A DNA stretch of 64,000 nucleotides, taken from a virus (lineage: Duplodnaviria; Heunggongvirae; Uroviricota; Caudoviricetes). The stretch lies in IMG/VR virus record IMGVR_UViG_3300008267_008434, one strand, 5' to 3'. This document shows positions 6,201-62,353 of the stretch, piece by piece. Position 1 is the stretch's first letter; each line of letters opens with the position of its first letter. Position numbers and translations under genes: made by a program. A model generated the notes under the pieces. That model ran no database searches. It was given only the letters and a program-made list of their open reading frames with translations, and was not told where the DNA came from.

Positions 6201-6204
6201 AACT

Positions 6205-6420: not shown

Positions 6421-6421
6421 A

Positions 6422-8397: not shown

Positions 8398-8407
8398 ATA
8401 AGTAAAA

Positions 8408-8686: not shown

Positions 8687-8689
8687 TAA

Positions 8690-11065
8690 ATGGATCTGTT
8701 TAATCCACCAAAAACATTTAATTATAAAATTATGATAAAAGATTTAGAGTTTTCTAAATTTGAAAACCCACCTATTCAAGTAGTATGGGAAGACATTTCA
8801 GAGAATTTCACACAAGATAAGATTAAGAGTGTTAAACATTACTTCCAAAAGAAGTACGGTTCCACTAATGTGAATGTTATCACAAAAGTTAAAAACATTC
8901 AGGAAGATACTATGCAAAGTGTTGATGTGTCTGTAAACATTATGGACACAAATTATCAAACTGATTTGTTGAAACAATTTCTTAAGTCTAAGGGGTATGA
9001 AAATCGTATTGATGAGGTTATGTCAATCAATAGAATGGTTGAGAATAAAATGTCTGAATCAGAAGATGAAACCTCATCATTTAAGAAATGGTATATCAAA
9101 AATATTGAATTCTCTAATTTCTTATCATATGGTGATAATCAGCGTATTGATTTTGATAAATGTAATGGTATTACAGTAGTTGAATCTAATCCACCTAACT
9201 TTGGTGGTAAGACAGTATTATCGGTGGATTTATTAATGTTCCTATTCTTTAATGAGACAACAAAAACATCAAAGGCGGAAGAAATCTTTAATCGATTTAC
9301 CGATAAAAACTCGGTAGTTGTAAAGGGTGAAATTATTATTGATGGTGAAGAATATATTATTGTTAGAAACATCGAAAGAAAAATGTCTAAGAAAGGTGAA
9401 TGGAATGTTAAAACCGAATTAGACTTCTTCAAAAAACTTTCCGACGGTAGTTTACAAAACTTTACTGGTGAACAAAGACGAGAAACCGAACAATTCATTA
9501 AAACATCAATCGGTTCTAAAGATGATTTCTTAATGACAATTTTAACCACCGCAACAAATCTTGAGGACCTTTTGGAATCAAAACCAACGGCAAGAGGACA
9601 GGTACTCTCAAGGTTTATGGGGTTGGAGTTTTTAAAGAAAAAAGAAGAATCTGCAAAACAAATTTATTCTGATTTTTCTAAATCAATGTTATCTAATGTT
9701 TATAATACTGAGCAATTAAAAAGTGATAATGAACAATATGAAACTGATATTGAAAATTTTAAAACTAGTATTGATACATTGAAAGACGAACTTAATCAAG
9801 TTGAAGTAAACTTAACAAAGGGTAAGGATTATCGTGACGATATGTTAAAAAAGAAACATACTGATATAGATAATGATATTGCTCAAACAAACCCTGATAA
9901 GGTACAAGATGAGATTAACTCATTTGAGTATCAAAAAGGTGACATCATTAAGAAGTCAAATGAATTACAGGTAGTTGAACCATCTTCTTTTTATTATGAG
10001 GATCAACACGATAAGGTTAAAGAAGAATATAACGAAGTATTCAAGGAAAAAATCCAAGTTGAGAGTAAGATTAAATCAATTGAGGAATTAAAGAGTTCCG
10101 TTGATGGTGGAATTAAATGCGAACACTGTGGTATTGATTTAATGATGGCATCAATCACCCAATCTAAAATTGCCGAACTTGATGGTTATAATAGGCAAAA
10201 AGAGGAAAAAGAGGGGTTAATGACGGTTTTATCAGGCAAAGAACAGGCATTTGTACAACTTAAAAAAGAGTTTGATGAGTATGAGAAAAACAAACTTATT
10301 AAAGAAAAATATGATTTGAGTATTGAGAGTTATAATCTTAAAATTGAAAATTTAAAACAAAAATTAGGAAGGTATAACGAATTGATTGAAAAAATTAAGG
10401 AAAATGAGAAGATTGAGGGTATGTTGTTAAAAGCAGGTATTAGAATTGAGGAACTTGAAAGAGAAAAGACTCAAAAACAAACACTAATCAATAATAATAC
10501 TTACCAAATCACCTCGTTGGAAGATAAGATTAAAAATAATTTAAATACAATAATCAAAATTCAGGAGGAATCTGAAAAAGAAAAATTATATAAAATATAT
10601 TTGGAGGCGTTCGGTAAAAATGGGATATCTAAAATCATAATGAAAACTATGATGCCGATAATAAACTCAGAACTTCAAAGACTAATGGAGGATAGTTCAT
10701 ACTTCAAACTTGAAGTTAGAATTAACGATAAGAATGAAGTTGAGTTTATGATGATTGACAACGGTACTGGTGTTGAGAAATTAATGACATCAGGTTCAGG
10801 TTATGAAAAAACAATTGCATCATTGGCATTGAGATCAGTATTAAGTAAGATTTGTTCGTTACCAAAACCAAATATAATTGTCTTTGATGAGGTGTTCGGA
10901 AAAATATCTAACGACAATTTGGAAATGGTTTCAGAATTCTTTATTAAAATTAAAGAATATTTTGAGAAAATATTTGTCATTACACACAACCCAATGGTTA
11001 ATCAGTGGGCGGACACCATCGTTAAGATTAGAAAAGAAGATAATATTTCAAAGGTATATCAATAA
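8690..11065 (+). CDS. sbcC: SbcC/Rad50-family ATPase with CxxC zinc hook
   Basis: N-terminal P-loop is a variant ('ESNPPNFGGKT'). The central part is long coiled coil with 'IKCEHCGID' (zinc hook). C-terminal signature 'SGSGYEKTIASLAL', Walker B 'IIVFDEV' and His-loop 'ITHN' follow. Confidence 0.8.
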   Translation: MDLFNPPKTFNYKIMIKDLEFSKFENPPIQVVWEDISENFTQDKIKSVKHYFQKKYGSTNVNVITKVKNIQEDTMQSVDVSVNIMDTNYQTDLLKQFLKSKGYENRIDEVMSINRMVENKMSESEDETSSFKKWYIKNIEFSNFLSYGDNQRIDFDKCNGITVVESNPPNFGGKTVLSVDLLMFLFFNETTKTSKAEEIFNRFTDKNSVVVKGEIIIDGEEYIIVRNIERKMSKKGEWNVKTELDFFKKLSDGSLQNFTGEQRRETEQFIKTSIGSKDDFLMTILTTATNLEDLLESKPTARGQVLSRFMGLEFLKKKEESAKQIYSDFSKSMLSNVYNTEQLKSDNEQYETDIENFKTSIDTLKDELNQVEVNLTKGKDYRDDMLKKKHTDIDNDIAQTNPDKVQDEINSFEYQKGDIIKKSNELQVVEPSSFYYEDQHDKVKEEYNEVFKEKIQVESKIKSIEELKSSVDGGIKCEHCGIDLMMASITQSKIAELDGYNRQKEEKEGLMTVLSGKEQAFVQLKKEFDEYEKNKLIKEKYDLSIESYNLKIENLKQKLGRYNELIEKIKENEKIEGMLLKAGIRIEELEREKTQKQTLINNNTYQITSLEDKIKNNLNTIIKIQEESEKEKLYKIYLEAFGKNGISKIIMKTMMPIINSELQRLMEDSSYFKLEVRINDKNEVEFMMIDNGTGVEKLMTSGSGYEKTIASLALRSVLSKICSLPKPNIIVFDEVFGKISNDNLEMVSEFFIKIKEYFEKIFVITHNPMVNQWADTIVKIRKEDNISKVYQ

Positions 11066-23045: not shown

Positions 23046-23975
23046 ATGAATATTCCGAATTATTACGACATATTAGGTGTTCCTGAAACTGCAACCCAAG
23101 ATGAGATAAAAAAAGTATATCGTAAACTGGCAAAAGAAAATCACCCTGATGCTGGTGGTGATGAGGAAAAGTTTAAGCAAATTGCTGAAGCATATGATAC
23201 TATTGGTGACGATAACAAACGACAAGAGTATGATATGAGAAGAAAGAACCCATTTGCAGGAATGGGAGGAGGTGACGATATATTCCAACAGATGTTTAAT
23301 CAGGCATTTGGTAATCGTAGACAAAAAAATGTGGTACATGATTTAGTTATTGATACTGAATTAAAAGTTACTGAATCATATTTGGGTGCGAATAAAGAAA
23401 TCACATATCGTAGGAAATTAAAATGTGATCCATGTAATGGTAGTGGGGGTGAGAAGAAAATTTGTCCCGAATGTAATGGACAAGGTTCTGTAGTGAGACA
23501 GATGGGGTCTGGTATGTTTATACAAATGGTACAAGTTGCTTGTAACACTTGTTCAGGACATGGACGAGTTATTACAAATCCTTGTCATATTTGTAATGGT
23601 AGTGGGACTAAAGATGAGATGAAAACTGTTGAAGTTAAATTACCTAATGGTATTGATGATGGACAATTCATCCGATTACAAGGTGTTGGGGATTTTAGAA
23701 ACGGTGTTTATGGTAACTTAGTTGTTAGAGTTAAATTGGTTTCTGATAATAATTTTGAAAAGTACGGACCTCACTTAATTTATAATGCTTATTTCACATT
23801 GGATGATTTGAAGAAGAGTGATTTTGAAATACCTCATCCTGACGGTACGGTAAGGTTAAGATTCCCAAAGACATTTGATACAACAAAACCCTTAAGAGTT
23901 AAATCAAAAGGGTTTAAAGGTGAAGTGATAGGTGACTTGTTGGTTAACCAGCATGTCCGATTTGAAAGGGATTAA
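23046..23975 (+). CDS. dnaJ: DnaJ-family co-chaperone (J domain plus four CxxCxGxG zinc-finger repeats plus C-terminal domain)
   Basis: 'YYDILGV...HPD' J domain. Repeats 'CDPCNGSGG', 'CPECNGQGS', 'CNTCSGHGR', 'CHICNGSGT'. Confidence 0.85.
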   Translation: MNIPNYYDILGVPETATQDEIKKVYRKLAKENHPDAGGDEEKFKQIAEAYDTIGDDNKRQEYDMRRKNPFAGMGGGDDIFQQMFNQAFGNRRQKNVVHDLVIDTELKVTESYLGANKEITYRRKLKCDPCNGSGGEKKICPECNGQGSVVRQMGSGMFIQMVQVACNTCSGHGRVITNPCHICNGSGTKDEMKTVEVKLPNGIDDGQFIRLQGVGDFRNGVYGNLVVRVKLVSDNNFEKYGPHLIYNAYFTLDDLKKSDFEIPHPDGTVRLRFPKTFDTTKPLRVKSKGFKGEVIGDLLVNQHVRFERD

Positions 23976-24152: not shown

Positions 24153-24665
24153 TTATTTTTGATAATAAATAATTATATCACCAATTATTTTATAAGTGAA
24201 TGATTGGTTAATAATTGATTCTCTTATCACAATATCATCATTTCTTGTTATTATAATCTCTCTAGTGTTAACATTATTGAATAATTTTTTTGGGTGACGG
24301 ATTGAGGTATTTATTGTTATTTTAAGATTATTATTTTTTATGTTGTAATGAGTAAATAATTGATAATCAAAACCTAAACGGTAATCACGAATCAATAATG
24401 CACATTTATGTTTACAGGTATTAAATAAAATAAATGATTGATTAATTAAAACATCGTATATGTCCGACATTGAGTCCATGATTTCATCCGTTGGGACTCT
24501 AATAAATTCACCACTACCGGTAATAGCTCGGAAAGATTCATAAGTTTGAACGATACTCAATGGTTGACCATTAATGGTAACATTTTTAATAGGAACACTC
24601 TCAACAATTATACTCTTAAGTAATGGTAATAAATTCATATATAATATAAATACAAGAAACCCCAC
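24153..24665 (-). CDS. Hypothetical protein
   Basis: 170-aa minus-strand ORF. Confidence 0.4.
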   Translation of the reverse strand: MGFLVFILYMNLLPLLKSIIVESVPIKNVTINGQPLSIVQTYESFRAITGSGEFIRVPTDEIMDSMSDIYDVLINQSFILFNTCKHKCALLIRDYRLGFDYQLFTHYNIKNNNLKITINTSIRHPKKLFNNVNTREIIITRNDDIVIRESIINQSFTYKIIGDIIIYYQK

Positions 24666-25799: not shown

Positions 25800-27644
25800 A
25801 TGAAATTAGTAAAAATTTTATCATCGGTAATCGTAGAAAATGTTGATCCTAAATTTAGATTAACAGAAATATCAAATAAATTAATGAATCAACTTGTCCT
25901 TAAATTTAGTAACGAAACTAAAGATTCTGAGGATGATATTAAAAGTTATATTGGTGATTTTGATAAATATAAAAACGGATTACCTGCCGACAAACGAGAC
26001 ATTACAAAATATACATATGATCAACTTAAGTCTGTGATTTTATCAAAAAGAGTTAAGAAGGAAGAAGGTGATATATTTAAAACCTATATGAAGGGTCCTG
26101 GTAAAGGTTCTGATCAAAGACAAGTTAAGTCTATGATTAAGAAATTCTTAGAGATAAGAAATTATCTACCTGAACCTAATAGGGATATTATGAGATACCC
26201 TTATTTGAAGTTGGTTGAATTGATACAAAATAAATTTGGTGGAATTATTACCAAGGCGGCATTTGAAAAATATAAGAAAGAAAGAAACGATTTAACAAAC
26301 GAGCAAATACTTTCTTACATTGAAAGATATGTTGATTTGTATGATAGATTGGAAGCAAATACGCCACCGATTATGTTAATGTCATTTGATGAGTTGGAGG
26401 CGGCATTGGATCATTTACCTGACGGAGATGATACACCAAAGAAAAAAGGTGACGACTTTAAAGATATTGAAACAATCTACGATAAAGATAATTTGTATAT
26501 CTTCAAACCAAACGGTAAAGAACAATGTATTAGATTAGCACATGGAAGACCTTGGTGTACATCAAGAATTGGTGGTGGTAACTTATATTACAACTATCGT
26601 TTGGAAAATAACTTAACACTTTACTATGTTATTGACAGAGATACCCCATTTGATGATTTGAACTTCGCGGTTGTTATCTTGGTTGATGAGTATGGAAGAA
26701 AAAGAATTGCCGATGGTAAAAACATGGCTGGTGGATATTCAGGACACAGAACAGAGACTTGGGATACAATCTCATCTAAAGTTCCGAAGTTAAAAGACAA
26801 AGAATACTTATTTACTCCAGATCCACTTACTGATAGAGAAAAAGGATTATTAAGAAAATACAAACATATTAATGTTCAAGACGATGCAGTTAAAGAACTT
26901 GGTTCGGTTGAAGATGCTGAGTTTTGGTTAGAAATTGCAAGTCCAAACCTAACAAACAAACCAAGAGTTTATATTAATTTACCTTCAGAACTTAAAAAGA
27001 AATATATTTCTTTGGGTATGGATTTAACAGGTGATATGATTACAAGTTCAGAACCTGATGTTGTTAAATATTATTTGGCAAGAAAGATTGATTCGTTGAG
27101 AACCAAAACTTTAAATAATCTTACCACCGCGGATATTGCTTTGATTAATATGCCGGGAATGAAAAATCTTAAGGAAGAACTTAAGGTTAAATATGCCGGA
27201 CAGTTGGCAACAGAAGGTGACAACATTGTTAAGATTACATACCCGAATGATGCGTCATCAAAATATATTGCATTGTTTGGTTTTGATGAATTATTTGAAA
27301 ATTTACCTGAAAGTATTACATATTTAACAATATCAAATAAATCAAACGATTCTCTTGATTTGGATATACCGGCAAGCATTGGTAAGTTTACAAATATAAT
27401 AGCATTGGTACTTGAGAATTGTGTAAAATCACTACCTGAAGAATTAGGAAGAATGGAAGGATTAACATTCCTAACATTACAGAATAATAAAAATCTTCAA
27501 AGTCTACCTGAGTCTTTAGCGGATTTAGAGTATTTGGATCTTATTGCGTTATCGGGATCAAATCCAAGTGTTGTAATACCTGAAAGATTAAAGAATATGA
27601 TGGTTGAAGAAGGTGATGGTTTTTACTATATTTCAAGAGACTAA
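25800..27644 (+). CDS. Large protein: internally duplicated N-terminal module, WC[TS] domain, C-terminal leucine-rich repeats
   Basis: 'LPADKRDITKYTYDQLKSVI' and 'LPEPNRDIMRYPYLKLVELI' are a duplication. 'HGRPWCTSRIGGGNLYYNYRL...LYYVIDRD' is shared with the 54205..55179 gene. C-terminal LxxLxLxxN repeats. Confidence 0.5.
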   Translation: MKLVKILSSVIVENVDPKFRLTEISNKLMNQLVLKFSNETKDSEDDIKSYIGDFDKYKNGLPADKRDITKYTYDQLKSVILSKRVKKEEGDIFKTYMKGPGKGSDQRQVKSMIKKFLEIRNYLPEPNRDIMRYPYLKLVELIQNKFGGIITKAAFEKYKKERNDLTNEQILSYIERYVDLYDRLEANTPPIMLMSFDELEAALDHLPDGDDTPKKKGDDFKDIETIYDKDNLYIFKPNGKEQCIRLAHGRPWCTSRIGGGNLYYNYRLENNLTLYYVIDRDTPFDDLNFAVVILVDEYGRKRIADGKNMAGGYSGHRTETWDTISSKVPKLKDKEYLFTPDPLTDREKGLLRKYKHINVQDDAVKELGSVEDAEFWLEIASPNLTNKPRVYINLPSELKKKYISLGMDLTGDMITSSEPDVVKYYLARKIDSLRTKTLNNLTTADIALINMPGMKNLKEELKVKYAGQLATEGDNIVKITYPNDASSKYIALFGFDELFENLPESITYLTISNKSNDSLDLDIPASIGKFTNIIALVLENCVKSLPEELGRMEGLTFLTLQNNKNLQSLPESLADLEYLDLIALSGSNPSVVIPERLKNMMVEEGDGFYYISRD

Positions 27645-31859: not shown

Positions 31860-33368
31860 ATGAAAAAAGTAATTAGACTTACCGAATCAGATTTAATTAA
31901 AATAATTAAAACTAAACTCAACGAAGAAGAATCTGAATTTATTGAAATTCCCGCAAATGAATATGAACAGTTATTATCTGTAACTGGATATAATGGTGCG
32001 GCTCTTGAAAAGACAAGAAGGTTTAGAGGTAAGAAAATAAAAGTAAACGGTAGGTTAGATATATCAGGTAAACCAGTTACAAATCTTGGAACAATATATC
32101 TACAAGGATCATTAGAGGCAACTAGATCAAAGTTAGAAACTTTAAATGGTGTGACAATTACGGGGTCTAAATGGTACTATAATACACCATTGGAGTCTAA
32201 AGAAAAGATAAGGAAACGAAGAAAAGAATTGGATGATGCCCAAGAAAGAAGAGAAAATGGTGTGTGGGACTTAGATTATCCGAACATTGATGATGAGGGA
32301 TTAAAAGCAAATGCTGCGTTTCAGTACCTTGTTGAAAATGGTGAGATAGAAGAAATAACATCAGAAGAAAAAAGAGAATTAAAAAATTTAGAACAAAGAC
32401 AACTTAATATTTCTGATAGAATGGAAGCGGAAAATGATGAGGAACTTTTATCTGAATTGCAAAGTGAATACGATGAATTACAAGAAGACATTGATGATTT
32501 ATTAAGAAAGGAAAATAATGATGTTTATGGATTGATACCCAAAAGTTTTGGACATTATAATATGTTATCTTTTATGACAACATATGATGATTTTAATGAT
32601 GTGACAATTGCCGTTGGAACCGAATATGAAGCGGATGAATCAAAAAAAGAATGGGTTGAACAATTATTGGATGATGGAGGATATAGACACTTTAATCAAT
32701 ATACGGTTGAAAGACATATTGATGGTGATGAGGTTGCCGACTATTTTGAAGATGTTATTAGAGAATGGATATATGATGATCCTGATAATTATGACGTTGT
32801 AAAAGATTTAAGTAGAAGTCAAAAAGATGAACTTTGGGTTCTTAAAATGGAGAAATGGGTTTATGAAAATGAAGGAGTCAGGTTTCCAATAAAGTACCCA
32901 ACAAAAGAAGAAAATGGAACTGTATTTGATTTTTGGGATGAAGATGAAGAACACGAATTTCAATTAAAATATGAAGGAAATAAGTGGGTATTATATAAAG
33001 ACGGATCGATAGTTCAACCAGGTCAACTATATGATGATGAAGACACTGACGATCACCAAGATGATCGTGAAAGTAGAATTTCTGATATTGAATATGAAAT
33101 ACAAGAAATTGAAGAAAATCCTGATGGTGATTTGGATGAAGATTCGGTTGAAGAAAGGGTTGAAGATAAAAAATACGAAATTTCTAATGACCCTATAAGT
33201 TGGTTGAGAAATTACGACATGGATGTTGATAATTTTATTGATGAAAAGGCATTTATTGAAGATGTTGCTGGTGATGAGGATTATGGTATTTTGAATGGTT
33301 ACGACTCAACATATGATATTATTAATTTGGGTAACCAAAGTTATGTTGTAATGATAACCGATAAATAA
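31860..33368 (+). CDS. Hyper-acidic protein with conserved N-terminal leader 'MKKVIRLTESDLIKIIK'
   Basis: 502 aa, D/E-rich. The N-terminal 16 aa are nearly identical to those of the genes at 47314, 47615 and 47952. Confidence 0.5.
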   Translation: MKKVIRLTESDLIKIIKTKLNEEESEFIEIPANEYEQLLSVTGYNGAALEKTRRFRGKKIKVNGRLDISGKPVTNLGTIYLQGSLEATRSKLETLNGVTITGSKWYYNTPLESKEKIRKRRKELDDAQERRENGVWDLDYPNIDDEGLKANAAFQYLVENGEIEEITSEEKRELKNLEQRQLNISDRMEAENDEELLSELQSEYDELQEDIDDLLRKENNDVYGLIPKSFGHYNMLSFMTTYDDFNDVTIAVGTEYEADESKKEWVEQLLDDGGYRHFNQYTVERHIDGDEVADYFEDVIREWIYDDPDNYDVVKDLSRSQKDELWVLKMEKWVYENEGVRFPIKYPTKEENGTVFDFWDEDEEHEFQLKYEGNKWVLYKDGSIVQPGQLYDDEDTDDHQDDRESRISDIEYEIQEIEENPDGDLDEDSVEERVEDKKYEISNDPISWLRNYDMDVDNFIDEKAFIEDVAGDEDYGILNGYDSTYDIINLGNQSYVVMITDK

Positions 33369-34294: not shown

Positions 34295-34486
34295 GTGAAA
34301 ATAATGGGATTCAACAAGAGGATACTCAGAAAAGATAATATTATTAATAATCTTGATAACCTATCAAGATATCTATCAGCCGATGCAATTATTATTAGTG
34401 ACGACTTTTCAAATGAAGTGTTCAAAATGTTCTGCGAAGGAAAAACTGAGGATGAAATCATAAAATATATAAATAAAAACAAATGA
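34295..34486 (+). CDS. Hypothetical small protein
   Basis: 63 aa with ATGA overlap into the GS gene. The antisense ORF 34288..34482 was judged spurious. Confidence 0.3.
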   Translation: MKIMGFNKRILRKDNIINNLDNLSRYLSADAIIISDDFSNEVFKMFCEGKTEDEIIKYINKNK

Positions 34487-35682
34487 AGATTAAACTTGAA
34501 TATCTGTGGTTAGACGGATATATGCCGGAACCAAATTTAAGAAGTAAGGTAAAAATTGTTAATTACGATGACATAAAAAATTCATTTATAACGGGTAGAT
34601 TTCCTGAATGGAACTTTGACGGATCATCAACAAACCAAGCAGAAACTGGGACTTCAGACTGTATTTTAAAACCTGTAAGACATTATTTGGATGATAAATT
34701 TGGTAGTGTGTATGTTCTTTGTGAGGTTATGAATTCAGACGGAACACCACATCAATCAAATACCAGATCATTACTTGGTAATGAACAAGAGGATTTGTGG
34801 TTTGGTTTTGAACAAGAATACTTTATCTATGATAGAAAAAATAAATGTATTTTAGGCCACGATGAAAACAACTTGGAACCACAAGGTAAATATTATTGTG
34901 GTGTTGGAGAATATGTTGCGGGTAGAGAATTTGTTGAAGAACATATGAATTTATGTTTAAGGTATGGGATTAACATAACAGGAATAAATGCCGAGGTTGC
35001 ACTTGGACAATGGGAGTATCAAGTATTCTCTCAAGGTAAATTGAAATCAGGAGATGATTTATGGATGTCTAGATACCTATTACATAAGTTGTCCGAAAAA
35101 TATAATTATGGGATTGAACTACACCCAAAACCAATCCAAAAAGGTGAATGGAATGGATCTGGACTTCACACAAACTTCTCAAATTATAAAATGAGGGAAG
35201 AAGGTGGTGAAAATCATTTTAAATCAATTTTCTCAAGTTTTGCCACAAGACACCAAGAACATATTGAAAATTATGGTTCATCAAATGAATTAAGATTGAC
35301 GGGTAAATTTGAAACCCAATCAATTAATAAGTTTAGTTGGGGTATTTCAGATAGAGGTGCATCAATTAGAGTTCCACAATCAACCGCAAAAGAATGGAAG
35401 GGATATGTTGAAGATAGACGACCATCATCTAATGCTGATCCATATAAAATCATTTATCAAATATGTGAATCATTAAGAAACGCTGAAGAGATTGACGACA
35501 TCAAACATAAAATGAATTATAAACTTGATATGGACAACCTTAAGATGGATTATAAAACAATCCCAACCGATGAACTATTAAAAGAATACTTCAATGATGA
35601 AGAATTTGAATTGGATGGTAAAACAATGGATGGAAGTAATATCCCTACAAAAGAAATTAAATTTGATTTAAATGGAAAATAA
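34483..35682 (+). CDS. glnA: Glutamine synthetase, type II (eukaryotic-like GSII)
   Basis: 'PEWNFDGSST', 'YYCGVGEYVAGREFVEEH', 'GINAEVALGQWEYQV', 'NGSGLHTNFS' and 'ASIRVPQS...GYVEDRRPSSNADPY' are near-identical to GSII signature regions. Length 399 aa. Confidence 0.85.
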   Translation: MKIKLEYLWLDGYMPEPNLRSKVKIVNYDDIKNSFITGRFPEWNFDGSSTNQAETGTSDCILKPVRHYLDDKFGSVYVLCEVMNSDGTPHQSNTRSLLGNEQEDLWFGFEQEYFIYDRKNKCILGHDENNLEPQGKYYCGVGEYVAGREFVEEHMNLCLRYGINITGINAEVALGQWEYQVFSQGKLKSGDDLWMSRYLLHKLSEKYNYGIELHPKPIQKGEWNGSGLHTNFSNYKMREEGGENHFKSIFSSFATRHQEHIENYGSSNELRLTGKFETQSINKFSWGISDRGASIRVPQSTAKEWKGYVEDRRPSSNADPYKIIYQICESLRNAEEIDDIKHKMNYKLDMDNLKMDYKTIPTDELLKEYFNDEEFELDGKTMDGSNIPTKEIKFDLNGK

Positions 35683-37205: not shown

Positions 37206-37532
37206 ATGGATATTTATTCATATATGAAAATAATTATAACGGAAAATAAAAGGGACAGACTGGCGTTAAATTGGTTGAATAATAAATTCGGTAATCTAAC
37301 TAAGGTTGTTAACTATGATAGAACATTTTATGTTAATAAGGATAAAAAACCGTTATTTTACTATTATCAAGATGATAAAAATAAGTTTGTTTTTATTGAT
37401 TACACAAGAATTTGGATATTTTTTGAATCCATTTTTGATATGGAATATGAACAAATACAAGATATTCTAAAAATATGGTTGGAAGAAACCTATAATTTGA
37501 GTGGATATTTACCTATTGATTACGGACACTAA
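37206..37532 (+). CDS. Hypothetical protein
   Basis: 108-aa ORF. Confidence 0.4.
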   Translation: MDIYSYMKIIITENKRDRLALNWLNNKFGNLTKVVNYDRTFYVNKDKKPLFYYYQDDKNKFVFIDYTRIWIFFESIFDMEYEQIQDILKIWLEETYNLSGYLPIDYGH

Positions 37533-37552: not shown

Positions 37553-38428
37553 ATGAAAATATTTCTTACCGAAAAACAATTAAAATATTTAAAGTCAAAT
37601 CTTATTTCAGAGTCAGATGAGGTAAATCAATATGGGTTTACACAGGACGAAATGAAACGAATTGAAGAATTTGTTAGAAAAAATGTTAAACAACAATATG
37701 AATGGTTAAAAAAAGAAGTTGAGGAGGGTGAGGAACATGCGGAAATTTTGGAAAAAATAAAAAGTCATATTAAAAATAATCCTGATATACCTGAAAAATA
37801 TTTTGATTATATGATTAAAGAATATGAGGGTAAAGTAAAACAATACGAAAGAAATAAAAAGAACCTTGAAAATTTTGATTTTGAAGAGTATGTTAAAGAT
37901 GGTATTGATAGAGATATACACGGAGGAGCATATTCAATGTCTTGGAATATCAGAAGCGAAAAATGGGAGAAAGAACAATTAAATAGAAAGTTAACAAAAG
38001 AAGACATAACTGATATTTTAGTTACCGCTCTTGAGGGTGGATCCAATTATTGGTATTTAATTGATTTACCTGAAAATATAAAATCATATGGGCAATCAAA
38101 ATCTGAAGCGGTTGGTGAATATGTCTTACGAGGTGGGTCAATTGATTTCTACGATAAGGAAGAATATTATGATGTTAGGAGAGCATTAAAAGATGGTGAT
38201 TACAATATTGGTGATAGTGATGATATGGTTGATGAAAAGAGTTATCAGGAAGACATTGAAAATACTAAACTTGGACATATTGATATGAACAGAATATTAG
38301 AGGCAATAACAAAAATAAAAAGTGAATATCCTGAAGTTTGGAAAAATATATTATTGGAAAATGCGGATGCTGGAGATGCCGATGTATTCTTACAACTATG
38401 TGTAATGGGTGAAGTTGTTTATGGGTAA
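37553..38428 (+). CDS. Hypothetical protein with leader-like N-terminus 'MKIFLTEKQLKYL'
   Basis: 291 aa. N-terminal hydrophobic-LTE-x-QL motif. Confidence 0.45.
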   Translation: MKIFLTEKQLKYLKSNLISESDEVNQYGFTQDEMKRIEEFVRKNVKQQYEWLKKEVEEGEEHAEILEKIKSHIKNNPDIPEKYFDYMIKEYEGKVKQYERNKKNLENFDFEEYVKDGIDRDIHGGAYSMSWNIRSEKWEKEQLNRKLTKEDITDILVTALEGGSNYWYLIDLPENIKSYGQSKSEAVGEYVLRGGSIDFYDKEEYYDVRRALKDGDYNIGDSDDMVDEKSYQEDIENTKLGHIDMNRILEAITKIKSEYPEVWKNILLENADAGDADVFLQLCVMGEVVYG

Positions 38429-42978: not shown

Positions 42979-43005
42979 TTTATGATATTTATAAATAAAA
43001 AAGTT

Positions 43006-43842
43006 ATGAATATCAGAAGAATTTTAATTTCCGAACAAGAAAAAAAAGACATATTATCGCAATATGGTGTAAAAAAAGATGTTATCTCTGAACAAACATT
43101 GAATGATGATGGAACATATACAATTAAGAATCTTCAAGAGTTTACAGTACACGCAATTCAGTATGGGGGTAGTGCACCTAGAGTTTACATTAAAAAAGGT
43201 GAGACAGTGAAAAAAAATACCGACGGTAAAAGTCTATCCGTAGATGTTTACTATAAAAAAGAAGACTCAACAGGTAAATTTACAGGTCCTTTGGTTAAAT
43301 CAGGGTCTAAAGGGAAATTTATTTGTGGTGATTATTTATTAAGATTTGAAGGTAGTGAACAAACTTACGAACAAATTGTAATGACTGGACAACCATTTAA
43401 AACTGCAATGAATAAATTATTCTGTGATGGAAATAAATTAAAATCTGATAAAGTAGTTGGAGGTGGTGGTGAAGAACAAAAACCAAAAACAGATAATAGA
43501 TGTAAATTTGTTGAGAAAGAATTCACAAATCAGCAAGTTTGTTATATTCCGAATGATAAAACTTGGATGTATGCAAAAACTGATGATGGAAAATGGTACA
43601 CAACTAAACAAACTGATAAAAAAACATGGTGTGAATTGACGACACCTAAATTCCAAAAGGCTATTGATAAATTAAATATTGAATGTAAAGGATTGGAACC
43701 AATATCAAAGTTGGAACTTAAACCAATTGGTACTATTGAAACTGAAAAGAATTTAGAATTGGTACCATCAAAACAACAAATGATTGATAAAGGTTTAGAG
43801 GCGGCTAAGTTTGTATCAAATCTACAAAACAGACCACAATAA
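43006..43842 (+). CDS. Hypothetical protein with leader motif 'MNIRRILISEQEKK'
   Basis: Start at the internal Met after the terminator T-tract. The N-terminus is paralogous to 'MNLQESIRRILREE' of the two minus-strand genes. Confidence 0.45.
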   Translation: MNIRRILISEQEKKDILSQYGVKKDVISEQTLNDDGTYTIKNLQEFTVHAIQYGGSAPRVYIKKGETVKKNTDGKSLSVDVYYKKEDSTGKFTGPLVKSGSKGKFICGDYLLRFEGSEQTYEQIVMTGQPFKTAMNKLFCDGNKLKSDKVVGGGGEEQKPKTDNRCKFVEKEFTNQQVCYIPNDKTWMYAKTDDGKWYTTKQTDKKTWCELTTPKFQKAIDKLNIECKGLEPISKLELKPIGTIETEKNLELVPSKQQMIDKGLEAAKFVSNLQNRPQ

Positions 43843-43898: not shown

Positions 43899-44288
43899 AT
43901 GGAAAATACATTATATATCGTAAGAGGAATACCAGGTAGTGGTAAATCAACATTTGCAAAAACTTTAGGTGGACAACACTATGAAGCGGATATGTTCTTC
44001 ATTGATGAGAATGGTGTGTATAATTTTGATTTCACTAAAATAAAAGATGCGCATCAATGGTGTCAGAGTTTTGTTAAATCTGATATGATATTGGAATATC
44101 CCAAGATTGTGGTTTCAAATACATTCACACAAGAGTGGGAGATGCAACCATACATTGATATGGCGAAAGAACATGGGTATAAAGTATTCACTATTGTAGT
44201 TGAGAATAGACACGGAGGTGTAAATGAACATAATGTTCCCGAACAAGTTTTAGAAAATATGCGTAATCGTTTTGAAATTAACCTTTAA
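43899..44288 (+). CDS. P-loop polynucleotide 5'-kinase-like protein (T4 Pnk kinase-domain-like, AAA_33)
   Basis: 'GIPGSGKST' Walker A and 'HYEADMFF'. C-terminal 'VPEQVLENMRNRF' parallels the T4 Pnk kinase 'VPIDVLRSMYKSM'. Confidence 0.55.
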   Translation: MENTLYIVRGIPGSGKSTFAKTLGGQHYEADMFFIDENGVYNFDFTKIKDAHQWCQSFVKSDMILEYPKIVVSNTFTQEWEMQPYIDMAKEHGYKVFTIVVENRHGGVNEHNVPEQVLENMRNRFEINL

Positions 44289-44940
44289 CCAAAAACTTTT
44301 TAAAATCGGTTGTTGAAGGTTTTTCATTTTTAAAGTAATAAGTTTCTGTTTTACCATTATAAGTTATTTTCTTATAATATCCATCAGGAACCGTGGCGCC
44401 TGATTTGAGTATTGTGGATTTTTTTGAAAATACACAAATTACAATAACAGACACCTCATACTTTAATGCCAATTCTCTTTCATACGCTTCTAATAAACGC
44501 CAAGTGGTTCTATTGAGATCTTGTTGTTGTAATGTACAGTTAAGGTAACTAAATGTTTTCTTTAACATAATCTTATCACAATTAAAATCTGCGGCAGGTG
44601 CCATATGTCCCTTGTCCCAAATGTTATTTTCATAATCTTTTGAGTCAGATGTTTTAACAGAATCACAAGTGAAGAAATCCATACCAGATCTTGATGCATT
44701 ACCTGACGGACAATCCACGGTATAACTCACAGATAAAGGTTGTTCTAATTTCTCAGAATAAACAACGGTAAAAATATCACTTTTAATGATTACACTATCT
44801 CTTAATGGTTTTTGAGATAATAAAATAAAAGGGAAAATAAAAAATAAGGATAATAAAAACTTTTTCATTTCAATAAATATCAATATATTTGCAATTATGG
44901 GATTTAAAAAAATATTAACGACAGGAAAAGTGTTCATCAC
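44278..44940 (-). CDS. Secreted DNA/RNA non-specific endonuclease (NUC/Serratia-nuclease family)
   Basis: Signal peptide 'MKKFLLSLFFIFPFILLSQ'. Active-site 'DKGHMAPAADF' (DRGH motif). Confidence 0.6.
   Translation of the reverse strand: MMNTFPVVNIFLNPIIANILIFIEMKKFLLSLFFIFPFILLSQKPLRDSVIIKSDIFTVVYSEKLEQPLSVSYTVDCPSGNASRSGMDFFTCDSVKTSDSKDYENNIWDKGHMAPAADFNCDKIMLKKTFSYLNCTLQQQDLNRTTWRLLEAYERELALKYEVSVIVICVFSKKSTILKSGATVPDGYYKKITYNGKTETYYFKNEKPSTTDFKKFLVKG
44884..44891 (+). promoter_or_regulatory. -7 box TAtaTTTG, 5 nt before the ATG
   Basis: tatatttg-caatt-ATG. Confidence 0.45.
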
Positions 44941-45550: not shown

Positions 45551-45576
45551 ATCACAACTCCTTTATATTTATATGT

Positions 45577-46827
45577 ATGAAGAAAAATTTAATCATTACT
45601 GAAAATCAACTTGAGATTATTGTAAATAATCTCTTACTGAATGAAGCCGTTGGAGTTCCTGAAGGAATCATTGAATCGGCTGAAGAACTATATGAAATCA
45701 TATTAAACCTATTAAAAGGTATGGATGATTACGACACAACACAAACATTTACTGAAGATAATTTAGATTTAACAATATCTGATTATAAAATACACGAATT
45801 AGAGTTAGCAGTTCAAGTTCACGAAATGGATGAATATGATGGACCATTCACTATGATATCAGCCGGTGTTGCAAATCAATTTAATTTTGATAGAAAACTA
45901 CTAATGAAGGTTCATAAACAGGATAACACAATTGAGTTACAATTACATTTTGCATCAAATGGGGATGATTGGGATTCCCAAGACCCTTATAATTACTTTA
46001 CTAATGATAGAGTTCAATTAATATCTGTAATTGCTCACGAAATTAAACATAAGTTTGATAAACAAAAAAAGACAACTGACTTGATAGGGAAAGATGCTGA
46101 TTATCAAGCATATGCAAGTCAAGGGTTAAACTTCGGAATTCCGGTTATTAGTGAATTTATGAGATATAGTTATTTCATTCAATATGTTGAAAATCTTGTT
46201 AGACCAACTGAAATGGCAACAAGAATGAAATTAACTGGAGTAACAAGAGAAAAGTTTAGAGAATTTTTTGAAAATGATAGTGTTGTTAAAGAACTAAAAG
46301 AAATTAGAGATTTTAGTTTTGAACATTTTATGGAAGAATTACATAATCAAATGGATCGTGTGGATGGTTTATTAGAACACGCAGATGTGGATTATGAAAA
46401 TATGACTGAAGAGGAAAAAATAAAGGTAGTTATGGATATAGTTTATATTAATCTTATTAGTGCTAAAAGAGATATTTTTGATAAAATGACGGATAGTGTT
46501 GATAGTGAAATGGCTAATTTTATGAGAATGTTAGGTATGGGTGTTAAGCGTGAGAACGATGAAGGATTGGAAAAAGTTAGACATAAATATTTAAATCAAC
46601 TTGCCAAATATCGTAATAGAGAAAGTCAGTTCTTTGTTGATGAATGTGAAAGATTTAACTATGTTGCAACAAAATTAATTAAACGACTTGTAAAAATATA
46701 TTCACTTATTCCTGACGAAAAAGAACAAACCAACGAATCAATTCTTAATTGGGAGTTACACCAACAAATAATGGAGAAAAAATACGGAAAAAGAAAAATA
46801 GAAAAAGAGTTTAAATTTAAACGGTAA
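45577..46827 (+). CDS. Hypothetical protein with leader-like N-terminus 'MKKNLIITENQLEIIV'
   Basis: 416-aa ORF. Confidence 0.45.
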   Translation: MKKNLIITENQLEIIVNNLLLNEAVGVPEGIIESAEELYEIILNLLKGMDDYDTTQTFTEDNLDLTISDYKIHELELAVQVHEMDEYDGPFTMISAGVANQFNFDRKLLMKVHKQDNTIELQLHFASNGDDWDSQDPYNYFTNDRVQLISVIAHEIKHKFDKQKKTTDLIGKDADYQAYASQGLNFGIPVISEFMRYSYFIQYVENLVRPTEMATRMKLTGVTREKFREFFENDSVVKELKEIRDFSFEHFMEELHNQMDRVDGLLEHADVDYENMTEEEKIKVVMDIVYINLISAKRDIFDKMTDSVDSEMANFMRMLGMGVKRENDEGLEKVRHKYLNQLAKYRNRESQFFVDECERFNYVATKLIKRLVKIYSLIPDEKEQTNESILNWELHQQIMEKKYGKRKIEKEFKFKR

Positions 46828-47247: not shown

Positions 47248-47281
47248 CAAACCCCACTTCAAATAAGAGTGGGGTTTTTTG
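47248..47281 (+). terminator. Rho-independent terminator
   Basis: aaaccccact-loop-agtggggttt followed by tttt. Confidence 0.65.
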
Positions 47282-47301
47282 TTTAATCAGATATTTATTA
47301 A

Positions 47302-47309
47302 TAAATTTG
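47302..47309 (+). promoter_or_regulatory. -7 box TAaaTTTG, 4 nt before the ATG
   Basis: taaatttg-taaa-ATG. Confidence 0.45.
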
Positions 47310-47313
47310 TAAA

Positions 47314-47610
47314 ATGAAAAAAGTAATAAGACTAACCGAATCAGACTTGACAAGAATAATCCAAAGGGTTATTACCGAATCCAAAAAGAAACAAAGTAAA
47401 TCTGAAATATTAAAGATGTCAAAAGAAGAATTGGAAGATGTTTATGGTGAATTGGAAATAAAGGGTGAATACCATGGAAAAAAAGGAACATTCCACCATT
47501 TTAAAAAAGCTATGTTTGATGTTGTTTGTAGTTTTAGAACTGACGATACAACACCATCAGGTTTAAAAAGAAATACAAAAGGAATTAAAGTTAAAAATTT
47601 AGATATTTAA
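47314..47610 (+). CDS. Small basic protein, leader-motif paralog 1 (MKKVIRLTESDLTRIIQRVI)
   Basis: 98 aa, Lys-rich. Shares the N-terminal ~20 aa (and ~45 nt) with the next two genes and with the gene at 31860. Confidence 0.55.
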   Translation: MKKVIRLTESDLTRIIQRVITESKKKQSKSEILKMSKEELEDVYGELEIKGEYHGKKGTFHHFKKAMFDVVCSFRTDDTTPSGLKRNTKGIKVKNLDI

Positions 47611-47614
47611 TGTT

Positions 47615-47947
47615 ATGAAAAAAGTAATAAGATTAACCGAATCAGATTTAACAAGGATTGTTAAACGAGTGATCAATGAAAATAAGAAAAAACCATCAAA
47701 TGAAAAAATTGAGGATGTGTTAAAAAAACTTATGGATGATTACATTGGTGAGGATGAATGGAAAGGTGGTTATAAAGAATCGTCAGATAAACCATATGAC
47801 AGATTTATGGTTAGTTTTAAACAATCGGGGGATGACACCGAAGAGATTGCTGAAGAAATCATTGAGAAACTAAATAATAAATTTGAAAGTAACTTATTTA
47901 AACTTGGTAACGCAAGTAAAAACTCATTTTGGTTTTATATAAAATAA
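47615..47947 (+). CDS. Small protein, leader-motif paralog 2 (MKKVIRLTESDLTRIVKRVI)
   Basis: 110 aa. Tandem paralog. Confidence 0.55.
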   Translation: MKKVIRLTESDLTRIVKRVINENKKKPSNEKIEDVLKKLMDDYIGEDEWKGGYKESSDKPYDRFMVSFKQSGDDTEEIAEEIIEKLNNKFESNLFKLGNASKNSFWFYIK

Positions 47948-47951
47948 TGAT

Positions 47952-48299
47952 ATGAAAAAAATAATTAAACTAACCGAATCAGACTTGACAAGAATTGTTA
48001 ATCGTGTGATTAAAGAAAATGAATCTAAATCTGATTTATTAGACTTAACCGTTTTTCAGTTGAGAAAAAAATTGGGTTTACCTAGTGGGTGTAAGATTGA
48101 GATTAAAAAGGGTGATGTTTCAGGAAAGAAACTTAAATATACTAAATATGTTAAATACATTATTACTCAATTACCGTCACCTGTTGACGGTAATCGTGAA
48201 AAAATAATGGATAAAATAGAATCATTAGAATCTAAAGATATTAATTCTCATGCATCACCCAATTTTGGAAAGGGAGTGACTTGGATTATTAAATACTAA
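47952..48299 (+). CDS. Small basic protein, leader-motif paralog 3 (MKKIIKLTESDLTRIVNRVI)
   Basis: 115 aa. Tandem paralog. Confidence 0.55.
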   Translation: MKKIIKLTESDLTRIVNRVIKENESKSDLLDLTVFQLRKKLGLPSGCKIEIKKGDVSGKKLKYTKYVKYIITQLPSPVDGNREKIMDKIESLESKDINSHASPNFGKGVTWIIKY

Positions 48300-48323
48300 A
48301 AGTATAACATATAAAAAATATTT

Positions 48324-48357
48324 AACCTCCCTTCAGAAATGTTGGGAGGTTTTTTGT
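48324..48357 (+). terminator. Rho-independent terminator
   Basis: aacctccc-loop-gggaggtt followed by ttttgtttt. Confidence 0.65.
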
Positions 48358-49739: not shown

Positions 49740-50066
49740 TTAGAATCTTTTATTATGATAAAATTTGTATAACTGTTTAATCGTGTCCTCAAGCATATCA
49801 GAAACTTCTGTCACAAAGTCTATTTCCTCTTGTTCTGGTAAATCCTCCCACCCAAGTTCATAATTATTCCACATAATTGATTCTACCGCTCTTAAAGTTA
49901 AGTCATATTTAAAACCTCTATAACTTTCAGTTTCGTAATACACTTGTTGTGCATTAATTGAAAGTAACTTCTTAACCTCATCTAAATCAATTCTTCTACG
50001 GAAGAACTTTGTTTCATTCAATAATTCTTCCCTCAATATTCTTCTTATGTTTTCTTGTAGGTTCAT
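49740..50066 (-). CDS. Leader-motif paralog (MNLQENIRRILREEL)
   Basis: 108 aa, minus strand. N-terminus near-identical to the next gene. Confidence 0.5.
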   Translation of the reverse strand: MNLQENIRRILREELLNETKFFRRRIDLDEVKKLLSINAQQVYYETESYRGFKYDLTLRAVESIMWNNYELGWEDLPEQEEIDFVTEVSDMLEDTIKQLYKFYHNKRF

Positions 50067-50068
50067 AT

Positions 50069-50518
50069 TTAATATTTTATTATTTCATAATTTTCTAAAT
50101 CCAAGTTTTTCAAGGTAATCTCTTTTTCATAATTAAAAGTTAAATTTTGAATTATTGTTTGATCTAAATTAATATTTGATTTGTGTGTTTTTATTCTGAT
50201 TATTTTAGCGTTATCATTTATTTTAACATCGGATAAAAACAACCAATCCGTATCGTAAAATAAATATTCATCAGAGGTTCTTATCCAATGTATATTTTTA
50301 TCCTTTTTAAATTCCCCAATAATATTAACTAATCTACTCAATTCAATATATTCAGGTATATTCATCAAACCACCATCATTAAAATCTTTATTAAACAGAT
50401 TATCCCAATTGTCATCAAACCCTTCCATGTTACCATGAAAATTAATATATTCTTTTTTATATTTATCTTTTATGGTTTCTTCCCTTAATATTCTTCTTAT
50501 GGATTCTTGTAGGTTCAT
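50069..50518 (-). CDS. Leader-motif paralog (MNLQESIRRILREET)
   Basis: Start at the internal Met (50518), 15 nt downstream of a minus-strand TAttTTTG box at 50534-50541. Confidence 0.5.
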   Translation of the reverse strand: MNLQESIRRILREETIKDKYKKEYINFHGNMEGFDDNWDNLFNKDFNDGGLMNIPEYIELSRLVNIIGEFKKDKNIHWIRTSDEYLFYDTDWLFLSDVKINDNAKIIRIKTHKSNINLDQTIIQNLTFNYEKEITLKNLDLENYEIIKY

Positions 50519-50564
50519 ATTAAAATAAATATCCAAAAATATTGTTTGGTAAATATAAAATGAT

Positions 50565-61211: not shown

Positions 61212-61406
61212 ATGAAATATTTTAAATTATTTTTGATGTGGTTGACATTTATTGTCATCGCATCACTTTACGGTGAGTATGTCGTAAGTAGAAATGTTAA
61301 CGGGTTCCTCCAACTTTTAGGTTTCGTTGGTATGGTAGGGATCTTTGGAATAATGGGAAACGAAACAATAAAAATTTTAACAAACAATAAGAAAGAAGAA
61401 AAATGA
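61212..61406 (+). CDS. Small 2-TM membrane protein (NfeD-like partner candidate of the SPFH gene)
   Basis: 'LFLMWLTFIVIASLYG' and 'LLGFVGMVGIFGIMG'. ATGA overlap with the SPFH gene. Confidence 0.4.
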   Translation: MKYFKLFLMWLTFIVIASLYGEYVVSRNVNGFLQLLGFVGMVGIFGIMGNETIKILTNNKKEEK

Positions 61407-62353
61407 TTAGTACAGTAATTTTTGTAGTGTGTTTGATTGCGGCGGTAGTATTCGCAATGAAAACAAGAGGTAATATGTATGTAACAAGTACAGACAGATG
61501 GGGAGATAATAGAGAAAAGTTTAATGCGGCGTGGTTATTTAAACCACTTGGTATTTTTGTCTTTGGAACTCTTGTATCGTTATTCCAACCATTTGCGGTT
61601 GAAAGAATTGATGCGGGACATAAGGGTATTATTGTAAACTTAACTGGTGACAACAGAGGTGTACAAAATTACCAATATACAACAGGGTGGGTTATGTATA
61701 ATACTTGGTTTAAACAAGTTCTTGAGTTCCCAACTTACCAACAACATATTGAGTATGATGATCAGGTGGTAATTACAAAAGGTGGATTCTCAGCAACAAT
61801 TAAACCATCATTTAACTACTCATTAAAACCTGATGCGATTGGTGATATGTTCGTTAATCTTCGTCTTGAGGTTAAAGATATTGAACAAGGATGGTTGAAA
61901 AATGCAATCGTTGGAGCAGTTAATGATGAAGCAAATAAATGGGAAGTTGATAGTATCTTTAGTAATCGTCAACAATTTGAGGCGGCAATCGTGGCGGAAT
62001 GTAATAAACGATTGACAAAATGGTTTGATGTTTCACAGTTGAGAACGAATATTACACCACCTGAAGCGTTACAAGAATCAATTATCGCAAAGACAAAGGC
62101 GATACAACAGGCTGAAGCGTCAGAACAACAGGCAATCGCAGCAATCGCGGAAGGTAAAAGAAAGGTTGCGGTGGCAAGAGCGGATTCTGCTGAGACAGTT
62201 ATTAATGCCAATGCCGCAGCACTTGCAATCAAGATTAAACAAGATAGGTTAACACCGTTGTATATTGAATATTTGAAAGCAAATTCGTGGGATGGGAAGT
62301 TACCAACAACGGTGGCAGGTAATTCAGGAATGTTCTTAAACTTGAATAAATAA
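61403..62353 (+). CDS. SPFH/band-7 (HflK/C-, stomatin/prohibitin-like) membrane protein
   Basis: N-terminal TM, 'VERIDAGHKGIIVNLTGD' SPFH core, C-terminal Ala-rich coiled coil 'AIAAIAEGKRKVAVARADSAETVINANAAA'. Confidence 0.5.
   Translation: MISTVIFVVCLIAAVVFAMKTRGNMYVTSTDRWGDNREKFNAAWLFKPLGIFVFGTLVSLFQPFAVERIDAGHKGIIVNLTGDNRGVQNYQYTTGWVMYNTWFKQVLEFPTYQQHIEYDDQVVITKGGFSATIKPSFNYSLKPDAIGDMFVNLRLEVKDIEQGWLKNAIVGAVNDEANKWEVDSIFSNRQQFEAAIVAECNKRLTKWFDVSQLRTNITPPEALQESIIAKTKAIQQAEASEQQAIAAIAEGKRKVAVARADSAETVINANAAALAIKIKQDRLTPLYIEYLKANSWDGKLPTTVAGNSGMFLNLNK

Follow-up and report, generated by a model that had tools for sequence, protein, structure and literature searches.

We analysed a 64,000-nucleotide stretch of the Caudoviricetes virus record IMGVR_UViG_3300008267_008434 (hereafter the window). 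Three tandem genes in it, starting at positions 47314, 47615 and 47952, and several dispersed genes begin with the same 22-residue peptide (hereafter the tag), followed by otherwise unrelated proteins (hereafter the cargo). Even if it should not be a capsid signal, the tag ranks among the best-conserved short peptide modules observed in accessory genes of phages. We consider it probable that the tag is a propeptide in the style of the capsid-targeting sequence (CTS) of phage T4, in a new, longer form and on a much larger scale. This reading draws on the anatomy of the tag, its conservation at the protein level, the diversity of the cargo, the T4-type head genes of its carriers, a matching motif in their capsid protein, and a shared promoter motif. 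Capsid targeting had been proposed in a first-pass annotation of the window; the idea survived every test run, with circumstantial support, but the boundary of the conserved block and the description of the three tandem genes had to be revised.

A sharply bounded tag under selection at the protein level

Every open reading frame (ORF) named in the first-pass annotation was found in the window. Four genes (31860, 47314, 47615 and 47952; class A) carry the tag in a strict form starting with MKK(V/I)I(R/K)LTESDL..I...(V/L)..E, and six further genes (45577, 37553, 43006, 37224 and, on the minus strand, 50518 and 50066) carry a weaker or shortened one. The two minus-strand genes (class B) begin with MNLQE(S/N)IRRILREE, which aligns with the second half of class A, DLTRIVKRVIKEE; judging from this alignment, class B is the helix part of the tag with the MKKVIRLTE part missing. 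The common leader described earlier holds strictly for four genes and more loosely for the others, and its length is 22 residues instead of about 16.

To define the boundary of the tag, we used 82 related loci fetched in addition to the window, which together gave 131 distinct complete tagged proteins of 51-502 aa. Positions 1-20 and 22 were strongly conserved. Glu9 and Glu22 were invariant (131 of 131), L7-T8-E9 was likewise present in all 131 proteins, and position 20 was I, V or L in 125 of them. The information content was 4.3 bits at position 22 and then dropped to 1.5, 0.9 and about 0.4 in a polar linker. This abrupt loss of conservation after Glu22 indicated that the tag is a sharply bounded 22-residue module ending with (I/V/L)-x-E. 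Its consensus is MKKVIRLTESDLTRIVKRVI[K/N]E, and VIKE and VINE are the commonest endings. In the same loci the motif was placed exactly four residues after the Met in 180 of 189 matches. Because of this placement, and because Glu22 was invariant although it lay outside the search pattern, chance is excluded as the origin of the matches.

The tag was also found well beyond these loci. An N-terminal profile search returned hundreds of metagenomic proteins with a near-identical start and an unrelated remainder, and a scan of IMG/VR confirmed the tag at 186 places, on viral contigs as long as 322 kb; in most cases only residues 1-22 matched. Across many related contigs the tag was 86-100% identical. 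The search with a hidden Markov model of the leaders, which the first-pass annotation had suggested, was run exhaustively against 1.84 billion representative proteins and showed that the tag occurs on 8,112 protein clusters at E<=0.001, of which 714 reach E<=1e-10; among the 150 best matches, the majority begin the tag at residue 1. As had been supposed, the motif belongs to no known family: it had no match in Pfam, PHROGs, NCBIfam or PDB sequences. None was found in 185,579 cellular species genomes by a scan seeded on the exact octapeptide MKKVIRLT, and literature searches on the peptide strings and on CTS-like metagenome tags gave nothing relevant.

In the metagenomic proteins P0122, P0124, P0126, P0130, P0131, P0139 and P0149, an internal copy of the tag lacking the Met is located between two cargo-like halves, and these proteins resemble fused neighbours or polyproteins.

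Synonymous codons varied at L7, T8, S10, R14 and R18 (for example TTA, CTA and CTT for Leu7, and CGA, AGA, CGT and AGG for Arg18). Variation of this kind at fixed residues indicated that selection acts at the protein level. The conserved element could instead be the nucleic acid itself, which might enhance translation initiation or provide a site for recombination when gene cassettes are swapped. The gene starts are A-rich (ATGAAAAAAGTAATAAGA), and the first 45 nt of the four class A genes are 80-91% identical (36-41 of 45 positions), which is lower than the near identity claimed at first. In T-even phages, conserved CTS DNA has been proposed to help cassette shuffling. However, codons are free at many positions where the amino acids are fixed, and in-frame internal copies occur without a start codon. 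Recombination could be a side benefit, but it leaves the protein-level selection unexplained, and we regard a function of the nucleic acid as the least likely of the explanations considered here.

The tag is attached to diverse cargo

The 131 cargos of the related loci and the window fell into 104 BLASTP clusters, which confirmed that unrelated bodies stand behind the shared leader. They were nearly devoid of Pfam or PHROG families, the exceptions being two cargos with LysM, one with PG_binding_1 and one with DUF6576. Most of them (>90%) were soluble and highly charged. Homologous cargos were found with full, truncated, helix-only or MK.LITE-type tags, so the tag versions look interchangeable.

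The three tandem genes of the window had been described as small basic paralogs. No paralogy was detectable beyond the tag, the best cargo-to-cargo BLASTP E-value being 0.01 (47314 against 47615), and the basic character applied to the first and third cargos but not to the middle one, whose pI is 5.0. This E-value, together with tandem arrays such as this trio and another with up to six tagged genes in 6 kb of a relative (L006), would fit a single fast-evolving multigene family in which only the N-terminus is still recognisable and has no sorting function. Such a family, however, should not yield 104 unrelated clusters with protein lengths of 51-502 aa, or cargos with independent known domains (LysM, PG_binding_1, DUF6576 and phrog_2355). 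Nor does it explain why homologous cargos bear different tag versions and why conservation halts abruptly at residue 22 with no gradual decay. We consider a common origin of this kind very unlikely.

Domain content also bears on whether the tag might be a signal for export or lysis that directs late proteins to the cell envelope. LysM or PG_binding_1 was present in 3 of 133 tagged proteins, which match endolysin PHROGs through those domains, and 8 of 131 cargos had a transmembrane-like segment. Against this, the tag is amphipathic and charged, differs from the true signal peptides of the window (e.g., MKKLIYFITIMLVIVSCQ), and precedes cargos of which more than 90% are soluble and highly charged. 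A Sec, Tat or lipoprotein signal peptide was rejected, because the tag has no hydrophobic core of at least 10 residues, no twin-arginine (RR) motif and no lipobox. We rate an envelope signal of any kind as less probable still than a single multigene family. The leader of a ribosomally synthesized and post-translationally modified peptide was also rejected: such leaders precede short core peptides, and the cargos here are 29-480 residues long.

Carriers of the tag possess T4-type head genes

By gene content, the carriers of the tag are distant relatives of T4 that belong to a T4-like clade. Exact proteins of the window were found on contigs of 0.2-1 Mb, indicating a jumbo phage. When we walked upstream of the window through its relatives, variable fibre-like ORFs were followed by a T4-like baseplate block with gp25, Baseplate_J/gp6 and large structural ORFs. 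Beyond this block there were gp32, a weak RecA/UvsX-like match, RNase H, DnaB helicase and class II ribonucleotide reductase.

T4 gp21 and gp23 were searched locally in all fetched loci, and three tag-seeded loci (L049, L051 and L053) matched. The gene order in L051 is gp21 homolog, 71-aa gene, two tagged genes, acidic 451-aa scaffold-like gene and gp23. Pfam detected Terminase_6N, Portal_T4 (gp20), Peptidase_S77 (79 bits, cut-off 27) and Gp23 in the head locus (L051/L264), and the clade protease scored 16 bits on the S80 profile, under the S80 cut-off. In L264, gp21 is located at 6001-6729 and the scaffold at 7748-9100, and the head module also includes proteins of 238 and 155 aa. The prohead protease for which the first-pass annotation had recommended a search thus exists in related contigs of the clade, but it is not inside the window and neither are the head genes. 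The lack of such a protease, which that annotation would have taken as a refutation, does not apply to the clade. At least 10 tag-bearing contigs also carry T4-type head or baseplate genes, and the clade gp21 was found in more than 600 viral contigs. The closest capsid proteins of cultured phages were those of Microcystis phage Mel-JY01 (43% identity) and Flavobacterium phage immuto (41%).

The capsid propeptide shares the end of the tag

When the capsid protein of the clade was aligned with T4 gp23, SFLINE/A was placed opposite SFLTE65/A of T4 (a slash marks the known or predicted cleavage point). The first 60 residues of this capsid protein are almost invariant in 25 variants (L264:9141-9320 and 24 others) and contain five h-x-E motifs, where h is hydrophobic: ALLE6, VIKE23, HLKE44, LYE51 and LINE60. 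KVIKE23 of the capsid propeptide includes VIKE, one of the two commonest tag endings (the other being VINE). Furthermore, the gene adjoining the capsid gene starts with M(D/N)RL.QIIKKVIKE/ATGDSS, made up of the helix half of the tag and then E/A. Distant members of this gene have other N-termini and still x-x-E/AT, once x-x-E/MT.

In T4 (NC_000866) the corresponding N-termini are MKTYQEFIAE/A for IPII and IPIII, MELITE/L for Alt and MAKINELLRE/S for gp24. The end of the tag agrees with the (L/I)-x-E consensus for gp21 cleavage, and a short N-terminal peptide shared by unrelated proteins is common to both systems. The first-pass annotation had placed cleavage at an L/I-x-E site in each leader. 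LTE, ending at Glu9, is indeed present in all 131 proteins, but conservation breaks off after Glu22 (VIKE/ or VINE/), which indicates that the cargo is joined there and not only at LTE/S.

The capsid-adjoining gene (L329:10861-11802) has homologs in at least 14 head-module loci. Its product combines the helix-only tag MDRLNQIIKKVIKE/AT with repeats of a G.Y..P...G motif and a C-terminal domain that is basic and rich in Cys. Neither a Pfam or NCBIfam family nor a homolog in cultured phages was found for it.

Tagged genes share a promoter-like motif with virion genes

The motif [AGT]TATTTAT was present within 45 nt upstream of the genes for terminase (96%), gp21 (98%), scaffold (85%), a 238-aa head protein (100%) and gp25 (100%), and of 0-4% of the gp32, UvsX-like, ribonucleotide reductase and RNase H genes. 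It preceded 68% of tag genes, compared with 26% of all genes. In the window, a TATTTAT motif stands at every tagged transcription unit.

Early-looking genes have another motif, TAnnTTTG, which is the -7 motif of Bacteroidetes. The contrast between TAnnTTTG and [AGT]TATTTAT in these upstream regions suggests two temporal promoter classes, and the Bacteroidetes-type -7 motif points to a host in Bacteroidota, which is probably the host phylum. In the window, TA..TTTG was seen before many early-looking genes including that for DnaJ (12747, 14143, 23046, 28024, 42159, 43899, 44897, 48389, 48827, 50577 and 51744).

Structure prediction and a docking element as the main rival

AlphaFold2 prediction of the 47615 protein with a tag-only alignment gave an extended segment at residues 1-8 and a helix at residues 9-24, with a predicted local distance difference test score (pLDDT) of about 90 in the tag. 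The body was uninformative (mean pLDDT 63), and the prediction does not discriminate between a propeptide and a docking helix. The first-pass annotation had asked whether the leader might be a DNA-binding or dimerisation helix. A helix was predicted, after the extended segment, but a DNA-binding ribbon-helix-helix domain was rejected: such a domain takes about 45 residues (a strand and helices A and B), the conservation here stops at residue 22, and neither this nor any other Pfam domain matched.

The main rival to a capsid-targeting propeptide is an uncleaved docking or oligomerisation element, consisting of a strand and an amphipathic helix, that tethers late proteins to one partner other than the prohead core. 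The partner could be a chaperone, a membrane, another part of the virion or the tag itself. The confident helix has a hydrophobic face, its best PDB match was a designed idealised helix, and a second copy of the tag occurs inside some proteins, all of which suit such an element. Hydrophobic stretches with basic flanks resemble chaperone-binding motifs, and the phage encodes a full DnaJ (23046-23975). On the other hand, a simple helix does not need an invariant Glu that closes the conserved block within the same (I/V/L)-x-E context as in the capsid propeptide, and the strict N-terminal placement and the polar linker after Glu22 suit a removable propeptide better. We therefore consider an uncleaved docking element unlikely, though it deserves more weight than the other rivals.

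A model for loading and release, and points against it

In the model that we favour, tagged genes would be transcribed alongside virion genes from TATTTAT-type promoters. The tag, with its extended segment and amphipathic helix, would bind the scaffolding core of the prohead, and the attached protein would be built into the head. A serine protease of the gp21 type would then cut after Glu22 and probably also after Glu9; both fit the T4 rule (L/I/V)-x-E. The released cargo would remain inside the filled head and be injected into the host together with the DNA. Core binding, cleavage, packaging and injection are all steps that we infer from sequence. Further, the tag might be a universal loading-and-release cassette by which dozens of effectors per virion are drawn from more than 8,000 protein families, with internal copies serving as cut-and-load modules of polyproteins. 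We put forward this extension tentatively, and doubt it more than we believe it.

Several observations weigh against capsid targeting. The S77 protease, the scaffold-like protein, gp23 and the portal are in contigs of the clade and none is inside the 64-kb window. The head module is tied to the window through syntenic relatives that are 70-99% identical, and the walk did not reach the gp21 of the window phage itself. Adjacency to the head module was rejected as a conserved feature, because, of 80 gp21-centred loci, only 2 had a tag gene placed between the genes for gp21 and the scaffold; tag genes are rare in core modules (0.1-0.7 per 100 kb). In 54% of relatives the [AGT]TATTTAT motif is also found before the gene for DnaB, and it may thus not be specific to late genes. 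The tag has no sequence similarity to MKTYQEFIAE beyond the terminal h-x-E; from the sequences compared, it works like a CTS at best and is not a homolog of it. A tblastn search of 50,697 records of cultured phages, with a tagged protein and with the tag by itself as queries, gave no match at E up to 10.

The cargo itself adds to these points. Two thirds of the cargos are acidic or neutral, unlike the basic internal proteins of T4. There are about 10 tagged genes in the 64-kb window and up to six in 6 kb of a relative, compared with about five in T4, and this high number raises the question of whether all of them are packaged. Glu22 is followed mostly by N, Q, S or D, not by Ala. Several top matches in the protein library carry a second internal in-frame copy of the tag, which suits a generic interaction motif as well as it suits a polyprotein. 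The abundance of tagged genes, the acidic cargos, the residue after Glu22 and the internal copies are all reasons for caution, because a docking helix would explain them about equally well.

Tagged genes of the window and their surroundings

The features of the window are listed in Table 1 together with the tag families of a cultured phage discussed below. The trio is a self-contained unit. A hairpin closes the upstream RlpA-like gene and isolates the trio as a transcription unit of its own, which consists of the promoter-like motif, the three genes and a second hairpin. The second hairpin lay outside the loop-length rule of the terminator scanner and was found by direct reading.

Table 1. Tagged genes and associated features of the window, and N-terminal tag families of Flavobacterium phage immuto (record positions).
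Record	Feature	Position	Strand	Description
Window	Tagged gene, class A	31860..33368	+	502 aa; tag 31860-31925, MKKVIRLTESDLIKIIKTKLNE; hyper-acidic cargo, pI 4.2; ATATTTAT at 31847
Window	Variant-tag gene	37224..37532	+	102 aa; MKIIITENK; absent from the first-pass annotation; first of a two-gene unit with 37553; ATATTTAT at 37210
Window	Variant-tag gene	37553..38428	+	291 aa; N-terminus MKIFLTEKQLKYLKSNLISE
Window	Variant-tag gene	43006..43842	+	278 aa; N-terminus MNIRRILISEQEKK; basic, Cys-containing cargo; ATATTTAT at 42985
Window	Variant-tag gene	45577..46827	+	416 aa; N-terminus MKKNLIITENQLEIIVNNLLLNE; no family in Pfam, PHROG or NCBIfam; ATATTTAT at 45565
Window	Terminator-like hairpin	47249..47277	+	Resembles an intrinsic terminator; ends upstream RlpA-like gene; 11-bp stem, then T run
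Window	Promoter-like motif	47291..47298	+	ATATTTAT; 23 nt before first gene of trio; putative late promoter
Window	Tagged gene 1, class A	47314..47610	+	98 aa; tag 47314-47379, MKKVIRLTESDLTRIIQRVITE; cargo 76 aa, pI 9.4; no family in Pfam, PHROG or NCBIfam
Window	Tagged gene 2, class A	47615..47947	+	110 aa; tag 47615-47680, MKKVIRLTESDLTRIVKRVINE; cargo 88 aa, pI 5.0; orthologs in L001 and L002, 81% identity
Window	Tagged gene 3, class A	47952..48299	+	115 aa; tag 47952-48017, MKKIIKLTESDLTRIVNRVIKE; cargo 93 aa, pI 9.6
Window	Terminator-like hairpin	48324..48357	+	Closes trio; AACCTCCC, 12-nt loop, GGGAGGTT, T run; read from sequence
Window	Short-tag gene, class B	49740..50066	-	108 aa; MNLQENIRRILREE
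Window	Short-tag gene, class B	50069..50518	-	149 aa; MNLQESIRRILREE; first of a two-gene unit; ATATTTAT at 50532, minus strand
NC_055915	Tag family	25061, 111675		MKKQILSEQF.RMQ.LAGIITE/S, putative cut before S
NC_055915	Tag family	1803, 103806, 117631, 118632		ME(N)(T)FDLKKFLVENKLT, also given as MENFDLKKFLVENKLT
NC_055915	Tag family	102294, 102880, 113188		MKKS(Q/E)L..(I/L)I

The motif at 37210 overlaps the start codon of a longer ORF. Because promoter-like motifs overlap the upstream start codons in this way, 43006, 37224 and 50518 are likely to be the true starts, not those of the longer ORFs. In the 37553 protein, the C-terminal 150 aa match phrog_2355 and cover the 146-position PHROG profile end to end, indicating that the tag is on an added N-terminal extension. 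The cargo of 45577-46827 contains an HExxH motif (AHEIKH) and could be a metalloprotease.

Two further N-terminal patterns were noticed. A second short motif, (S)E(E/Q)EK..I....(H/Y), occurs on otherwise different proteins in the window (43006-43842), in the L052:3432 region and in L317 (minus strand), with SEQEKKDILSQYG, LSEEEKNSIRGQH and ENEKNRILNLH as examples. The divergent genes 24153-24638(-) and 25800-27644(+) have TATTTAT motifs and start with MNLLPLLKSIIVES and MKLVKILSSVIVEN, which may represent a further tag type ending with I-V-E.

The G+C content of the window is about 30%, its genes are densely packed, and no tRNA gene was found in its 64 kb. It also encodes a DnaG-type primase, SbcCD-like nucleases, a RuvC-like resolvase, an RNA ligase, an SLT lytic transglycosylase and an RlpA-like protein. 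Host-like auxiliary genes include a type-II-like glutamine synthetase (34483-35682), the complete DnaJ and a Band 7/SPFH protein (61403-62353). Another host-like gene is 44278-44940(-), whose product bears a signal peptide, resembles the nuclease of phage immuto and may be a non-specific nuclease. In the relatives, the gene for class II ribonucleotide reductase is 79-89% identical over more than 600 viral contigs. Its product is 619-711 aa long in most relatives (e.g., L239:9254-11110 and L111:63-2198), and L103 has an ORF of 370 aa (L103:420-1532), possibly the result of an intein, a split gene or a frameshift.

Comparison with known systems

If our reading is right, sequence alone would suffice to list the proteins that a widespread uncultured clade delivers with its DNA as its first weapons against host defences. 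The tag would also be a ready packaging signal for engineering phages of Bacteroidota. If the tag were even a universal cassette, the packaged arsenal would be an order of magnitude more diverse than that of any studied phage, and a search with 22 residues would yield candidate proteins for host takeover and anti-defence by the thousand from abundant environmental phages.

The closest known system is that of T4, in which diverse internal proteins (IPI, IPII, IPIII and Alt) share just a CTS of 10-20 residues that is removed by gp21 (PMC3012670, PMC9026906, PMC5694885). The two systems are alike in having a short N-terminal peptide that ends with (L/I)-x-E on unrelated proteins, and in the gp21-family (Peptidase_S77) protease, acidic scaffold and gp23 with a conserved cleavage site in the carriers. 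The cargo genes are likewise small, fast-evolving and located in accessory regions (PMC3012670, PMC9026906). In contrast to the T4 peptides, which have 6-19 residues in the N-termini of NC_000866 and 10-20 in the literature, the tag has 22. It is built from a strand and a helix, and it offers two candidate sites for cleavage (Glu9 and Glu22). The clade also differs by its internal copies and many acidic cargos, and in scale, with about 10 tagged genes per 64 kb, against about five, and 8,112 clusters.

Giant phages such as phiKZ, 201phi2-1 and SPN3US also package many proteins, and their inner-body or ejection propeptides are removed after x-x-E by a gp21-related protease. The SPN3US paralogs gp53 and gp54 have an identical 15-residue N-terminus (PMC5694885). 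The propeptides of these phages, however, end with (S/A/G)-x-E and mostly exceed 100 residues, whereas the tag has 22. A propeptide of the phiKZ type was rejected here because position 20 is I, V or L and because the protease scores as S77 (79 bits), not as S80 (16 bits).

Extracellular contractile injection systems such as the Photorhabdus virulence cassette (PVC) also use an N-terminal tag for loading diverse effector-like cargo into a phage-derived particle. These signals are about 50 residues long, disordered and uncleaved, and they load the tail tube from a bacterial locus. The tag of the window differs in lying in the genome of a virulent T4-like phage with the logic of a head protease.

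A similar arrangement was found in Flavobacterium phage vB_FspM_immuto_2-6A (NC_055915; L353-L356), a cultured T4-like phage that infects a member of the Bacteroidota (Flavobacterium sp. LMO8) and encodes an S77 protease and the same T4-type head module. It has three N-terminal tag families of its own on unrelated proteins (Table 1), and most members have h-x-E at the junction between tag and cargo. One family (MKKSQLRQIIKE/A) resembles the helix-only class B tag. The immuto tags differ in sequence from those of the clade of the window, each being on two to four genes; none occurred in the loci of that clade, and the literature searched contained no description of them. If the tags are capsid-targeting propeptides, the T4 principle would extend over the T4 superfamily with an own tag in each lineage, and immuto would offer a tractable phage with the same pattern.

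The principle itself is known from T4. The tag of the window differs in five ways: its sequence is unrelated, it is twice as long, it is bipartite, it stands on about 10 genes per 64 kb, and it is carried by thousands of protein families in an uncultured clade.

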